Positions 1 to 4,215 of a stretch of DNA of 4,215 nt are shown here, piece by piece. Within the stretch, counting starts at the first letter, position 1. The number at the start of each line of letters is the position of its first letter. The position numbers were made by a program, and so were the translations under genes. The notes below the pieces were generated by a model, which searched no databases, was not told the origin of the DNA, and worked only from the letters and a program-made list of their open reading frames with translations. This stretch comes from a virus (Duplodnaviria > Heunggongvirae > Uroviricota > Caudoviricetes). The DNA lies in IMG/VR virus record IMGVR_UViG_2526164633_000019, positions 1 to 4,215 of that record; one strand, 5' to 3'.

Positions 1-180
1 ATGCAGCTCGCGCAGAAGGTCGTATAGGTGGGCGTACGACCTAAATACCAAGAAGAAACATGGCAGCAAATGCGGCGATTGCTGGAGAAGGGCATCCCCC
101 GTAAGCAGGTTGCAATCATCTATGATGTGGCTGTTTCCACGCTTTATAAGAAGTTTCCGGCGTCATCCTTTCAATCCTAA
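1..180 (+). pseudogene. Serine DNA invertase (Hin/Gin/Cin/Pin family), 3' end only; 5' part lies outside the window; reading frame disrupted around nt 25-43
   Basis: Frame 1 from nt 28 translates VGVRPKYQEETWQQMRRLLEKGIPRKQVAIIYDVAVSTLYKKFPASSFQS, stop TAA at 178-180. This is the characteristic C-terminal helix-turn-helix DNA-binding domain of Hin-family invertases and, from memory, is closest to e14 Pin. Immediately upstream, the conserved AARAEGRIGGR motif is in frame 3 (nt 3-35, stop TAA 42-44), while frame 1 has TAG at 25-27. Both conserved blocks therefore cannot be read in one frame. Confidence 0.6.
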
Positions 181-197
181 ACCTTGGTTTAAGAGAA
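172..197. other. Crossover site 1 for the invertase (gix/hix/cix-like 26-bp site: 12-bp half-site, 2-bp core, 12-bp half-site), at the invertase-proximal border of the invertible segment
   Basis: CAATCCTAAACC-TT-GGTTTAAGAGAA has the ACC-NN-GGT dyad that defines Hin-family sites. It matches the reverse complement of site 2 at 17 of 26 positions. It overlaps the last three codons and stop of the invertase. Confidence 0.65.
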
Positions 198-1751
198 CTC
201 GGTACCAGCGGTGAAAAGATCCCCCTGTTGAGCACGGCTAACACATGGAGTTCACGCCAGACTTTTAACGGCGGGATCACCGGGGCGCTGACAGGGAACG
301 CCGACACCGCGACGAAATTAAAAACAGCCATAAACATTAATGGCGTCAGATTCGATGGTTCTACGAACATTTCGATACCAACAATTACGTCTAGAGGACG
401 CGTTACTGCGCTTACCGGTACAACGCAAGGTGCTGCTACTGGATTGCAGATGTATGAGGCATACAACAATGGTTATCCGACGACTTACGGGAATGTACTT
501 CACCTGAAGGGAGCTGCATCCACTGGTGAAGGCGAGTTGCTCATTGGCTGGAGTGGCACAAATGGCGCTCATGCACCAGCTTTCATTCGATCCAAAAGAG
601 ATAGCACTGCTGCGGCATGGTCCGAATGGGCACAGATCTATACGTCAAAAGATTCCGTTCCCGGCGTTAATACCAAAGGGAATCAGGACACCTCTGGTAA
701 TGCGGCTACAGCGACCAAATTGCAGACGGCGTGTACTATCAACGGTGTCTCGTTTGACGGTTCTAAAAATATTGAGCTAACGGCGGCAGATTTAAATCTT
801 GAGCAAACTGTAGAATTAGCCGCAGGAGCATTACAGAAAAACCAGAACGGCGCAGATATTCCGGGAAAAGATACCTTCACCAAAAATATTGGTGCCTGCC
901 GCGCATATAGCGCATGGCTGAATATTGGTGGCGATAGTCAGGTCTGGACAACCGCGCAATTTATTTCGTGGCTGGAGAGTCAGGGAGCATTTAACCATCC
1001 TTACTGGATGTGCAAAGGCTCATGGGCTTATGCAAATAATAAGGTCATTACAGATACAGGTTGCGGAAATATTTGTCTTGCAGGTGCTGTGGTGGAAGTT
1101 ATTGGCACTCGCGGCGCAATGACCATACGCGTTACTACGCCGAGCATGTCCAGCGGTGGCGGAATTACTAACGCTCAATTCACTTATATTAATCATGGTG
1201 ATGCTTATGCTCCTGGCTGGCGAAGAGACTACAACACGAAAAACCAGCAGCCTGCATTTGCTTTAGGGCAAACAGGAAGCAGGGTTGCAAATGATAAAGC
1301 TGTTGGCTGGAACTGGAATAGCGGCGTTTATGATGCAGATATCAGTGGCGCATCGACATTAATCCTCCACTTCAATATGAATGCGGGGAGTTGCCCTGCT
1401 GTACAGTTCCGCGTGAATTATAAGAACGGCGGTATCTTTTATCGTTCAGCGCGTGATGGTTATGGCTTTGAAGCTGACTGGTCAGAGTTTTACACCACAA
1501 CCCGCAAACCCTCTGCGGGGGATGTTGGTGCATATACGCAGGCAGAATGTAACTCAAGGTTTATTACAGGTATTCGCCTGGGCGGTCTGTCATCTGTTCA
1601 GACATGGAATGGTCCCGGCTGGTCTGACAGGTCAGGTTATGTCGTTACAGGTTCAGTTAACGGAAACCGTGATGAATTAATTGATACAACTCAGGCAAGG
1701 CCAATTCAGTATTGCATTAATGGGACGTGGTATAACGCGGGGAGTATTTAA
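186..1751 (+). CDS. Silent (off-orientation) alternative side-tail-fibre C-terminal receptor-binding cassette (Sv'-like); no start codon of its own, would be fused to the constant N-terminal fibre region after inversion
   Basis: The open frame runs continuously from site 1 to TAA at 1749-1751. The ORF-track start at 228 is a TTG with no Shine-Dalgarno sequence. The frame through site 1 encodes ILNLGLRE, parallel to VIEYLGLQE encoded through site 2 in the expressed fibre. It contains two copies of a tail-fibre repeat motif (GNAxTATKLxTAxxINGVxFDGSxNI) and ends with RPIQYCINGTWYN, like the expressed fibre. Confidence 0.8.
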   Translation, partial: GLRELGTSGEKIPLLSTANTWSSRQTFNGGITGALTGNADTATKLKTAININGVRFDGSTNISIPTITSRGRVTALTGTTQGAATGLQMYEAYNNGYPTTYGNVLHLKGAASTGEGELLIGWSGTNGAHAPAFIRSKRDSTAAAWSEWAQIYTSKDSVPGVNTKGNQDTSGNAATATKLQTACTINGVSFDGSKNIELTAADLNLEQTVELAAGALQKNQNGADIPGKDTFTKNIGACRAYSAWLNIGGDSQVWTTAQFISWLESQGAFNHPYWMCKGSWAYANNKVITDTGCGNICLAGAVVEVIGTRGAMTIRVTTPSMSSGGGITNAQFTYINHGDAYAPGWRRDYNTKNQQPAFALGQTGSRVANDKAVGWNWNSGVYDADISGASTLILHFNMNAGSCPAVQFRVNYKNGGIFYRSARDGYGFEADWSEFYTTTRKPSAGDVGAYTQAECNSRFITGIRLGGLSSVQTWNGPGWSDRSGYVVTGSVNGNRDELIDTTQARPIQYCINGTWYNAGSI

Positions 1752-1753
1752 CG

Positions 1754-2287
1754 ATGATGCACTTAAAAAACATTACTGCTGGCAACCCTAAAACAAAAGA
1801 GCAATACCAGCTAACGAAACAATTTAACATCAAATGGCTTTATACAGAGGATGGGAAAAACTGGTATGAGGAACAAAAGAACTTTCAGCCTGATACGTTG
1901 AAAATGGTCTATGACCACAACGACGTTATTATTTGTATTGAAAAGGATGTTTCAGCAATTAATCCAGAAGGCGCAAGCGTCGTTGAGGTTCCTGATATTA
2001 CAGCAAATCGCCGGGCTGATATTTCGGGTAAATGGATGTTCAAAGATGGCGTAGTGATAAAGCGAACTTATACCGAGGAGGAACAAAGGCAGCAGGCAGA
2101 GAATGAAAAACAAAGCCTGTTGCAACTTGTCAGGGATAAAACCCAGCTATGGGACTCACAGCTACGGCTGGGCATCATTTCCGACGAGAATAAACAAAAA
2201 TTAACTGAGTGGATGCTCTATGCGCAGAAAGTCGAATCTACAGACACCTCCAGCCTGCCAGTAACATTTCCCGAACAACCTGAATGA
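1754..2287 (+). CDS. tfa: Tail fibre assembly protein (Tfa/U'-like chaperone) paired with the silent fibre cassette
   Basis: 177-aa ORF starting ATGATG at 1754, 2 nt after the stf' stop, with GGGGAG Shine-Dalgarno 9 nt upstream. Its N-terminal two-thirds is highly similar to the convergent ORF 2846-2316 (shared [18 protein letters not shown] and [15 protein letters not shown] blocks); its C-terminal third is divergent. Position directly after a fibre variable region is typical of tfa. Confidence 0.85.
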   Translation: MMHLKNITAGNPKTKEQYQLTKQFNIKWLYTEDGKNWYEEQKNFQPDTLKMVYDHNDVIICIEKDVSAINPEGASVVEVPDITANRRADISGKWMFKDGVVIKRTYTEEEQRQQAENEKQSLLQLVRDKTQLWDSQLRLGIISDENKQKLTEWMLYAQKVESTDTSSLPVTFPEQPE

Positions 2288-2290
2288 GAC

Positions 2291-2320
2291 AAGGCCCGAT
2301 AGCGGGCCTTAATTTTTATT
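2291..2320. terminator. Intrinsic terminator hairpin between the two convergent tfa genes (strong for + strand, weaker for - strand)
   Basis: Perfect 8-bp stem AAGGCCCG (2291-2298) / CGGGCCTT (2303-2310) with 4-nt loop ATAG, followed on the + strand by AATTTTTATT. It lies 3 nt after the tfa' stop. The T-rich tail overlaps the stop codon of the minus-strand tfa. Confidence 0.6.
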
Positions 2321-2846
2321 CAGGCTTTTGTGGCCATTCAGGATTTGCCGTATCCACACGGCTGACCAGAACACTGTAGCGTTCCCATGCTTCCAGTCGT
2401 GTGCGTTCCTCGTCTGTTGCCATATTCAGCCTGACAGCGCGTTCCAGCGGCTGGATGACTGATTCAGCTTCGGAAAGCAATGCGGCCTTTTGTGATTCGG
2501 CCTGTTGTTGCTGTTCGTCTGCCGTATAAATCCGTTTAACTACAGCTCCATCCTTAAACATCCACTTTCCTGAATCATCAGCGCGGCGGTTGGCTGTAAT
2601 ATCAGGAACCTCAACGACGCTAAAACCTTCAGGGTTAAGCGTGGAGGCATCTTTAGTGATGGCGACAATAATATTATTTGCATCGTAAACAATCTTTATT
2701 GTGTCTGGCTGAAAGTTTTTCACTTCCTCATACCAGTTTTTATCGTCTTCGGACCATAACCAGATAACATCAAAATTCTTTGTTAGCTGATATTGTTCTT
2801 TCGTTTTAGGATTTCCAGACTTAATATTTTTTAAATGCTGCATCAT
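2316..2846 (-). CDS. tfa: Tail fibre assembly protein (Tfa/U-like chaperone) paired with the currently expressed fibre
   Basis: 176-aa ORF. Its ATGATG start directly abuts the TAA stop of the upstream fibre gene (translational-coupling arrangement). It is paralogous to ORF 1754-2287 over the N-terminal ~115 aa and divergent at the C-terminus. Confidence 0.85.
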
Positions 2847-4215
2847 TTACACCTGTGCGACGTTATACCATGTGCCATTGATGTATTTTTGTATTGGCCT
2901 GAAGATGGCTTCATCATCGCCATCTACTTCACCAATGATTCTTAATCCGGTAATTGCGTGTCCGGCTTTTTCATAACGACCACCACGCGCCATCAATTGA
3001 ACAACTCGCGTACCCAGGCGAACATCTCTCACATAACGTGAGTCAAAATTACCATAATTGCCGGGAATAACTTGCGCACCGCAAAGCCAGTTGCCATTGT
3101 TGTCCATGTACGCCTGACCATCGGTGCCATTGGCTGTCCTTGAATTATTAATCATGTAAAAACCAAACTGGTAGTTACCAAGTCCACCGACAAAAAATTT
3201 GCGTTCTGCATGGTCTTGTCTTAACAAAGCCTGCGCAGAACTTGTTGATACTGCGTTTCTACCAAAAATGACATTCTGGTTTCGCATATCAATCCATGAG
3301 GTTGAACCACTATTAATAGCAAACCTGTTTGCATACACCCAGGAGTTAGTTGTTATATCTCCTGTAACATCCAGACCATGCCCCATGCTTATCCGACCAG
3401 TTCTAAGGTTAATCGTAAAGGGGCGTAATGGCCCTATATCACCATTTTCTCCCTCATTCTCTCGTGTAGGGATGATATGCAGGCATTCTTCAGAACGGCG
3501 AAAAATGGCACCAAAAGATGAATTAAATATCCTCAGTGCATTGACTGTCGATATTTTTACTTCACTGCTGAAAAGGGCTTTAACAAGAACAGACAAAGCA
3601 TCCCATTTAAGATTCATCAGGTCTTTTGTTGTGGTACTCTGTTTGCTTCTCCATTTGAAATATTCATTGCCGTTGTCGCCTGTTTCAAACCACATGTATG
3701 AATCAGTATCGCTGTCGGCATCATTTTTAAATCCAATCTTTGCCCAGTCAGTATTCCGAATCCAGGCAAGGATTGAGTCGTTTTCAAAAGTAAGCCCACC
3801 GGACAAGGTATCGCCATTCTTTTGCACGGCGTTCCTGGCCCTGTTTACCGTTTCCTGTAAACCGAGGTATTCGATAACAGCGGCAACGGTCGATTTCGCA
3901 AGAATATCCCGCCCGACTTTTGTCAGGGTTGCCAGGCTGGCGACATCATTCCCCGTAAAATACGGAAACTTGTCTGCCGCAGTAGCAAGCCCGGCCAGCG
4001 CCGTCAGGGTGGCATCTTTCGGTTGCTTACCCGCAAGCGCTTTAGTCATGGTGGTCGCAAAATTCGGGTCGTTTCCCAGCGCCGCCGCTAACTCGTTCAA
4101 CGTATTCAGTGCGTCAGGCGACGAGTCTACAAGTGCGGCAATCGCGGCCATCACATAAGCCGTGCTTGCGATCTGAGTATTATTAGTCCCTTTTGGCGCA
4201 GTTGGCGTTGTTGGC
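2847..4215 (-). CDS. stf: Side tail fibre protein in the expressed (on) orientation; 5'-partial, N-terminal constant region continues beyond the window end
   Basis: The minus-strand frame is open from the window edge (…PTTPTAPKGTNNTQIASTAYVMAAIAALVDSSPDALNTLNELAAALGNDPNFATTMTKALAGKQPK…) to TAA at 2849-2847. The N-terminal motif is, from memory, characteristic of lambdoid Stf-type side tail fibres. The ORF-track start at 4154 is an internal GTG, not the true start. The constant/variable junction coincides with site 2. Confidence 0.85.
   Translation of the reverse strand, partial: PTTPTAPKGTNNTQIASTAYVMAAIAALVDSSPDALNTLNELAAALGNDPNFATTMTKALAGKQPKDATLTALAGLATAADKFPYFTGNDVASLATLTKVGRDILAKSTVAAVIEYLGLQETVNRARNAVQKNGDTLSGGLTFENDSILAWIRNTDWAKIGFKNDADSDTDSYMWFETGDNGNEYFKWRSKQSTTTKDLMNLKWDALSVLVKALFSSEVKISTVNALRIFNSSFGAIFRRSEECLHIIPTRENEGENGDIGPLRPFTINLRTGRISMGHGLDVTGDITTNSWVYANRFAINSGSTSWIDMRNQNVIFGRNAVSTSSAQALLRQDHAERKFFVGGLGNYQFGFYMINNSRTANGTDGQAYMDNNGNWLCGAQVIPGNYGNFDSRYVRDVRLGTRVVQLMARGGRYEKAGHAITGLRIIGEVDGDDEAIFRPIQKYINGTWYNVAQV
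3852..3877. other. Crossover site 2 (gix-like), embedded in the tail-fibre coding sequence at the constant/variable junction
   Basis: Plus strand TTCCTGTAAACC-GA-GGTATTCGATAA. By recollection this matches the phage Mu gix site (TTCCTGTAAACCGAGGTTTTGGATAA) at 23 of 26 positions. It is in inverted orientation relative to site 1 and encodes VIEYLGLQE in the fibre frame. Confidence 0.75.

Follow-up and report, generated by a model that had tools for sequence, protein, structure and literature searches.

Din invertases cut both strands at a 2-bp core and swap the ends by a 180-degree rotation. The tail-fibre locus studied here carries two putative sites of this kind with cores that are not identical, and we asked what such a pair represents: a switch that has decayed, a switch that works as it is, or parts of two separate switches. 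The window, that is, the whole stretch of DNA that was analysed, has 4215 nt and is the entire contig AIHB01000050.1 of the draft assembly GCA_000250235.2. Its features are as follows.

1-180, plus strand: 3' end (last ~60 codons) of cin, a P1/P7-type DNA invertase gene, by alignment with cin of P1, P7 and P7-like plasmids
172-197, plus strand: crossover site 1 (cixL), identical at 26/26 positions to the annotated cixL of P1
186-1751, plus strand: silent alternative fibre C-terminus, P7-type Sv, 98.8-99.1% identical to P7 and P7-like plasmids
786-811, plus strand: degenerate vestigial crossover site (GATTTAAATCTTGAGCAAACTG...), by positional alignment, without the ACC-NN-GGT motif
1754-2287, plus strand: tail-fibre assembly chaperone U, partner of Sv (Pfam Caudo_TAP, E=2e-36)
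2291-2310, plus strand: GC-rich hairpin AAGGCCCGATAGCGGGCCTT followed by a T run, terminator-like by consensus scan
2316-2846, minus strand: tail-fibre assembly chaperone U', partner of Sv', in the expressed orientation (Pfam Caudo_TAP, E=8e-38)
2847-3863, minus strand: variable fibre C-terminus Sv', an open frame now fused in frame to the constant part
3757-3794, no strand: interval of the change in ancestry, with the P1/P7-plasmid type on its left and the P2-like prophage type on its right, by allele comparison
3852-3877, minus strand: crossover site 2, the fibre-gene-side site of P2-like (P88-type) elements, by 26/26 identity; core at 3864-3865
3866-4214, minus strand: distal constant region of a P2-like tail-fibre (H-type) gene, matching UMNF18 and running off the contig

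Neither the two alternative fibre frames nor the two chaperone genes are disrupted. The stop codon of cin (TAA, 178-180) lies within site 1, and the residues encoded by 28-180 match the Pfam family HTH_7 (E=2e-17). Sv is promoterless, has a weak Pfam match to gp37_C and contains, at about 186-810, one copy of the P1-type 0.6-kb repeat; the window has no partner copy, and a search for a long inverted repeat within it gave none. U is identical to that of the P7-like plasmids, and Sv' has a Pfam match to Gp34_trimer and carries alleles of the P1-plasmid type up to about 3794. Between the convergent genes U and U' the hairpin has T-rich tails, and judging from its sequence it may be a shared bidirectional terminator.

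Two crossover sites with different cores

Site 1 reads CAATCCTAAACC-TT-GGTTTAAGAGAA on the plus strand (in full CAATCCTAAACCTTGGTTTAAGAGAA) and has the core TT at 184-185. For site 2 the plus strand is TTCCTGTAAACCGAGGTATTCGATAA, in which 3864-3865 are GA; the minus strand reads TTATCGAATACCTCGGTTTACAGGAA, that is TTATCGAATACC-TC-GGTTTACAGGAA, with the core TC. When outer half, core and inner half are aligned, 9 of the 26 positions differ between the sites (1, 2, 6, 7, 9, 14, 21, 22 and 23), which are 8 of the 24 half-site positions and the second core base. The pattern WWWACCNNGGTWWW has exactly two matches in the window, sites 1 and 2, against 0.01 expected from 200 shuffles, and the two sites are thus not chance occurrences. 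Both have the Din-family format (26 bp, two imperfect 12-bp inverted half-sites and a 2-bp core, …ACC NN GGT…) and both lie at the junction of the constant and variable parts of a tail-fibre gene, with both alternatives in frame. By sequence, they are crossover sites of the Din family (Hin/Gin/Cin/Pin).

Site 1 is read as the codons AAC CTT GGT TTA (N-L-G-L) and site 2 as TAC CTC GGT TTA (Y-L-G-L). As the codon phase is the same in both fibre frames, the core difference is the wobble base of a leucine codon. The preliminary description had stated that the cores are non-identical (TT at 184-185, TC at 3864-3865), that the half-sites differ at 8 of 24 positions and that the core difference is a Leu wobble (CTT and CTC); the letters of the window, the alignment and the shared codon phase bear out these statements.

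On the minus strand, the current fibre frame extends uninterrupted from 4214 to 2847. When inversion is simulated, the constant part is connected to Sv in an open fibre frame of 638 codons that ends at 1751. The partners are inverted relative to each other, as in a functional invertible segment, but they lack the identical cores of one. A weak quasi-site lies in Sv at 1544-1569 (AGAATGTAACTC-AA-GGTTTATTACAG); its core fits site 1 in inverted orientation, but only 4/12 and 7/12 of its half-site positions match, and it is probably a chance match.

Each site belongs to a known system

Site 1 is identical at 26/26 positions to cixL of P1 (2671-2696 in our copy of the locus, L003), P7 and P7-like plasmids, and the P1 record annotates the crossover at precisely the core TT of cixL. 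Site 2 is identical at 26/26 positions to the fibre-gene-side site of UMNF18 (L001, 7253-7278), P88 (L005, 6025-6050) and many IMG/VR loci; in E. coli UMNF18 it matches two loci. It is also identical (26/26) to the 5' site of Phi4 in EC958, which inverts in PacBio data with a TC-core partner (PMC4134206). Compared with gix of Mu, site 2 differs at three positions; the Mu gix core is also TC, and the boundary of the Mu G segment is placed at the same position as the core. In the parental systems the cores are matched, TT/TT in P1, P7 and P7-like plasmids and TC/TC in Mu, P88 and UMNF18, and all nine differences between sites 1 and 2 are differences between the two systems. Each site is, by sequence, a canonical and undamaged member of its own system. 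The preliminary description had called for a comparison with the sites of invertible homologues; once run, this comparison spoke against damage, both sites being intact copies, of P1/P7 cixL and of the EC958 Phi4 site.

The closest known systems resemble the window in part only. As in the Cin/cix C segment of P1 and P7, the 3' end of cin overlaps a cixL with the core TT, the repeat copy, Sv, U, U' and Sv' follow in the same order, and the left 3.8 kb are 98.8-99.1% identical to P7. Unlike the C segment, the window is without the right-hand 0.6-kb repeat, cixR and the P1/P7-type Sc (the P7-type IR-R/cixR/Sc sequence is marked by TTCTCTTAAACCAAGGTATTGGATAA). The 0.6-kb inverted repeats that lie inside both cix sites of P1 and P7 are present as the left copy only; beyond 3815 the window is P2-like, with a right flank that consists of a P2-like fibre gene and a TC-core site, and its cin has a +1 frameshift.

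The second system is the P2-like fibre segment (P88/Xuanwuvirus type, UMNF18, EC958 Phi4), which is related to the G segment of Mu and its Gin/gix. Here the likeness comprises site 2 (26/26, core TC as in Mu gix), the constant region, with zero mismatches to UMNF18 at 3801-4215, and a homologous cassette from 828 onwards (93-94%). Unlike this segment, the window has no invertase-side partner site of the form TTATCTAAAACC-TC-GGTTTACAGGAA (the P2-like invertase-side site is TTATCTAAAACCTCGGTTTACAGGAA); at the homologous position, about 786-811, there is a degenerate vestige. The divergently transcribed Gin-like invertase is likewise missing, and the P1-type repeat, cixL and cin are found instead.

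The vestige at 786-811 aligns with positions 4182-4207 of the UMNF18 locus L001, which are the invertase-side gix-type site of P2-like prophages, and also with the right-hand vestige of P1. A vestige of a Mu/P2-type site is seen at the inner edge of each 0.6-kb repeat in P1/P7-type elements (786-811 in the window, about 6320-6345 in P1, L003, and about 6850-6875 in a P7-like element, L004); on the right side it reads TTCCTGTA and then GATTTAAATC... This suggests that the P1 C segment had an ancestor resembling the G segment, and that the crossover point was later shifted by 0.6 kb up the fibre gene.

Engineered hix/gix substrates (pRJ862, Hin) share with the window the arrangement of two inverted, otherwise competent sites that differ in one core base. 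On such one-core-base hix or gix substrates the recombinant orientation cannot be ligated, and exchanges are completed in even numbers only (PMC4817059). Unlike the window, they were built in the laboratory, their half-sites are identical and their enhancer is defined; the half-sites of the window pair come from two natural systems, the enhancer lies outside the window and the pairing is putative.

Partner cores in natural loci

We surveyed 80 IMG/VR loci with a U' homologue, together with hand-picked phage, plasmid and chromosomal loci. Two recognisable sites were present in 42 of the 80. Five of these 42 had the same outer flank on both sides (four exactly, one in part) and were left out as untrue pairs, and the properly flanked loci that were kept number 48 in all, with 15 distinct site pairs. 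The core is identical between partners in all 48 loci, either TT/TT (P1 type) or TC/TC (Mu/P2 type). Partners differ at 0-5 half-site positions and never at positions 13-14; one natural pair differs at position 12. Not one of the 48 loci pairs a P1-type site with a Mu/P2-type site. The window pair, with nine differences, one of them in the core, and with sites of mixed type, is the sole exception that we found.

In the draft contigs left out, namely L016, L058, L062 and L074 (and L068 in part), the outer flank on one side of the segment repeats that on the other, with 100% identity over 36-162 nt. They look like fold-back misassemblies that arose from the presence of both orientations in the culture that was sequenced. 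Of these contigs, L068 has at 4994-5019 and 8041-8066 a Mu-type site (TTATCTAAAACC-..-GGTTTACAGGAA) with the core TT instead of TC. The site adjoins a gin-like gene with a disrupted C-terminus, and no true fibre-side partner is visible on the contig. With Mu-type half-sites and TT at both ends, L068 was considered as evidence that the cores co-vary, and was rejected since both flanks are starts of the invertase gene, so that essentially one site is seen twice. In a P2-like prophage, the site at 6165-6190 of L095 has an inner half (TTCTCGTAAACC) near the P1 type and is followed by a P1-like GLRELGTS… fibre segment, and its core is still TC. The core therefore tracks the system (outer flank and invertase) and not the variable cassette.

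Mixed ancestry of the contig

Compared with P7 and P7-like plasmids, positions 1-3815 of the window are 98.8-99.1% identical, with zero mismatches over 1477-3035. The match to P7 ends at 3815, where P7 goes on with the 0.6-kb repeat, cixR and Sc. Positions 825-4215 are 93-94% identical to P2-like prophages, and from 3801 to 4215 there are zero mismatches to the P2-like prophage of UMNF18, whose fibre gene adjoins baseplate genes of the P2 type.

The alleles at 3387-3756 seemed private to the window at first, but they are present in a P1-like plasmid contig, L094. This contig equals the window over 3366-3794 except at 3639 and then shows 11 differences in 3795-3841, where the window is of the P2-like and Mu types. 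The UMNF18 type, on the other hand, differs from the window at 3636, 3639, 3741 and 3756 and is identical to it over 3757-4215. Taken together, these allele patterns place the change of ancestry within 3757-3794, and these are the final 38 nt common to both element types before they diverge. Since the change does not fall at the core of either site, the hybrid is not a product of site-specific recombination.

We therefore come to the main reading, to which we assign a probability of about 0.9: the sites are intact parts of two known switches, and the contig crosses from one element to the other inside a homologous cassette of ~3 kb (Sv-U-U'-Sv'). The cores are mismatched, on this account, as a consequence of the contig joining two systems. 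Both parts are known systems, and there is nothing new in kind.

Some strains contain both types of element. In the IMG genome 2526164633, a 43-kb Mu-like contig (L093) and the 63-kb P1-like contig L094 both start at the same point of Sv', equivalent to 3366 in the window, and are 98% identical over the next 494 nt, from which it follows that both elements share the fibre cassette in that strain and that the assembly breaks there. E. coli UMNF18 has two P2-like prophages (L001 and L095) with invertible fibre segments of their own, both TC/TC, and in addition a P1-like plasmid, NZ_AGTD01000005.1, with cin and cixL. All ingredients for an exchange between elements, or for a mis-assembly, are thus found in one cell in UMNF18.

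Searches for the hybrid

The hybrid, in either orientation, is absent from 5426 complete E. coli genomes, PLSDB, IMG/VR, the GTDB representatives and the JGI metagenomes. A 96-mer across the ancestry switch (3750-3845) had no match in IMG/VR, the GTDB representatives or the JGI metagenomes, and the patterns for the hybrid junction in the inverted state, CAATCCTAAACCNNGGTTTACAGGAA and TTCTCTTAAACCNNGGTATTCGATAA, had none in IMG/VR. Exact-protein matches to the 50-aa and 433-aa products were limited to this contig. As for coverage, about 120 complete genomes span the cin-cixL junction and about 356 span the region of the P2-like site; P7-like plasmids were found in both orientations (H1-H3 in one, H5-H8 in the other).

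Synthetic queries for the inverted junction gave only split matches in the 5426 E. coli genomes, and no hybrid. Split matches of one kind are the ordinary P1 structure, with the 0.6-kb repeat between the pieces; those of the other kind, at 86%, are a second, ordinary P2-like prophage with TC/TC cores. Two chromosomal copies of cin were considered as hybrids and rejected, that of APEC17 being in an ordinary integrated P1-like prophage and that of IH5 in a string of gene fragments. The latter stretch (L007, 5102120-5120446 of the E. coli IH5 'chromosome') is made up of unrelated truncated gene fragments including a partial cin, and although the record is labelled a complete chromosome, it looks like concatenated leftover contigs.

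Consequences of the core mismatch

The predicted course of events does not depend on how the join came about: both sites are expected to be bound and cut by an invertase. Once the ends have turned by 180 degrees, the 2-nt overhang TT would lie opposite the complement of TC, with pairing at the first core base and a mismatch at the second. The inverted product could then not be ligated; the ends would go back to the parental arrangement and the segment would stay as it is, with the constant part-Sv' fusion and U' expressed. At most, rare localized conversion of one core would be expected; Iida and Hiestand-Nauer (1986 and 1987) reportedly described such rare localized conversion for Cin. The Fis-dependent enhancer of P1 lies in the 5' part of cin (L003, 2137-2208), which would be upstream of the window. 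For Hin, a single base change in one hix core blocks ligation when the segment is inverted and allows even numbers of exchanges only (PMC4817059). Because a single core mismatch has this effect, the pair, if real, should not invert productively.

That the pair functions as it stands is hardly credible. It would require either that cleavage is offset to the CT at 12-13, which both sites share, or that the invertase tolerates the mismatch; and Din invertases do tolerate half-site differences, natural partners having up to 5. The offset cut had been named in the preliminary description as a possible escape, but the P1 crossover is placed in the central TT, and the boundary of the G segment in Mu coincides with it. 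The survey contradicts the offset as well, for the natural pair that differs at 12 would be mismatched under such a model, while no partner difference at 13-14 was seen in the 48 loci. Tolerance, in turn, has against it the Hin result, in which one core change stops ligation of the inverted product (PMC4817059), and the hybrid junction in the inverted state was found neither in IMG/VR nor in the 5426 E. coli genomes.

It has also been proposed that the switch is decaying or locked. The lock is in agreement with the block to inversion by a mismatch (PMC4817059), but the decay is not in agreement with sites that are each a 26/26 copy from a functional system. Decay would mean that point mutations in a once-matched pair changed TT to TC, altered eight half-site positions and shifted the frame of the invertase. 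The differing cores and half-sites (8/24) and the frameshifted cin do fit this, and the disruption of the invertase frame, also noticed earlier, is present in the sequence: relative to cin of P1 and P7, the window has an extra A at 36 and the change G39A, and the frame is broken. Yet each site is a perfect copy from a different system, the nine differences are those between the systems, the flanks have different parentage and every fibre and chaperone frame is intact. The frameshift itself is weak evidence for decay, as it lies 36 nt from the contig end. We regard decay as very improbable.

The changes in cin lie 36-39 nt from the contig end, and the frameshift may have arisen as an error at the end of the contig and not as a biological lesion. 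An exact search with a 42-mer across it had no match in IMG/VR or the GTDB representatives, and no other record has the insertion. The idea that the first 39 nt come from another invertase gene was rejected, positions 1-35 being exact cin. Between cin and the invertase genes of P2-like elements and Mu there is no shared k-mer of 17 or more, and the end of the contig within cin is not explained by sequence common to other invertase genes. Invertases are known to act in trans on the sites of heterologous prophages (PMC4134206).

Origin of the join

The remaining question is whether the join was made in a cell. Since the window is a whole 4.2-kb draft contig, it is possibly an assembly artefact, and we lean towards an assembly chimera of two normal switches, inferring that the assembler rather than the cell made the join. 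In that case both elements would be present in the source strain, their proper, matched partner sites lying on other contigs; the assembler would follow the plasmid alleles through the shared cassette and, on reaching the fork between the two elements, continue along the prophage branch. This fits with where the switch lies: a real crossover could fall anywhere in about 3 kb, but the plasmid alleles continue across the entire shared part and the change occurs in the last shared stretch, where a fork in the assembly graph would sit. The contig is a short draft contig with private changes 36-39 nt from its end. Misjoins in drafts are common at such loci (four or five of the 42 two-site IMG/VR contigs are fold-backs), the Mu-like and P1-like contigs of one strain end at the same point of Sv', and UMNF18 has both element types in one strain. 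Collapsed repeats and spurious contigs at fibre switches have been documented for EC958 (PMC4134206), and no hybrid was found in the collections searched. On the other side, an assembler that breaks at repeats, given both intact elements, would also break at the forks near 828 and 3795. An unbroken contig of 4.2 kb means that the strain could have this one cassette only, in which case the hybrid is real. The left contig end in cin, unexplained by shared invertase sequence, also speaks against a chimera, and the two cassettes are locally about 93-100% identical, enough for RecA-dependent recombination in a cell with both.

Such a recombination is what the competing reading supposes: a real and recent recombinant between a P1/P7-type plasmid prophage and a P2-like prophage, formed by homologous recombination in the shared cassette. 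To us it is the less probable of the two, but a possibility of some weight. By cointegration or patch replacement, cin-cixL with its TT core would be left facing the P2-like site with its TC core and the P2-like fibre gene. The switch would be locked, with the constant part, Sv' and U' expressed and Sv and U silent; cleavage of the sites would be open to any Din invertase of the cell, but not ligation of the inverted product. A contig that runs uninterrupted across both forks is what this predicts, and a recent event would leave the four cassette genes and both fusion frames undamaged, as they are. Over long stretches, identity between the cassettes of the two types is 93-100%, strains with both elements exist, trans action on heterologous prophage sites is documented (PMC4134206) and the blocking of ligation by a core mismatch is established for Hin (PMC4817059). 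It is at odds with the absence of any hybrid from the ~120 genomes spanning cin-cixL, the ~356 spanning the P2-like site and the other collections searched. The switch point, moreover, lies in the last 38 nt of homology and not elsewhere in the 3-kb cassette, and the hybrid is known in a single copy, on a 4.2-kb draft contig that has unusual changes close to one end. The stronger statement, that the contig is faithful and represents a natural hybrid whose host-range switch is locked by one synonymous wobble base (CTT and CTC, both Leu), is to our mind possible but doubtful.

Implications

The survey yields a rule for annotation: the cores of partner sites are identical (48/48), and up to 5 half-site positions may differ. 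If the join is a chimera, it is unsafe to take a short draft contig over an invertible fibre cassette for a single locus, and seemingly mismatched or decaying switches in such contigs need confirmation at the level of reads. If, on the other hand, the contig is faithful, it would be a natural case in which incompatibility of the core dinucleotide is a barrier between two otherwise cross-reactive invertase systems, as well as a natural substrate in which localized core conversion could be observed. A real hybrid would mean that one silent base is enough to put a host-range switch out of action when unrelated phages exchange fibre cassettes, and it would suggest a role for the core dinucleotide in preventing recombination between the P1-type and Mu/P2-type systems.
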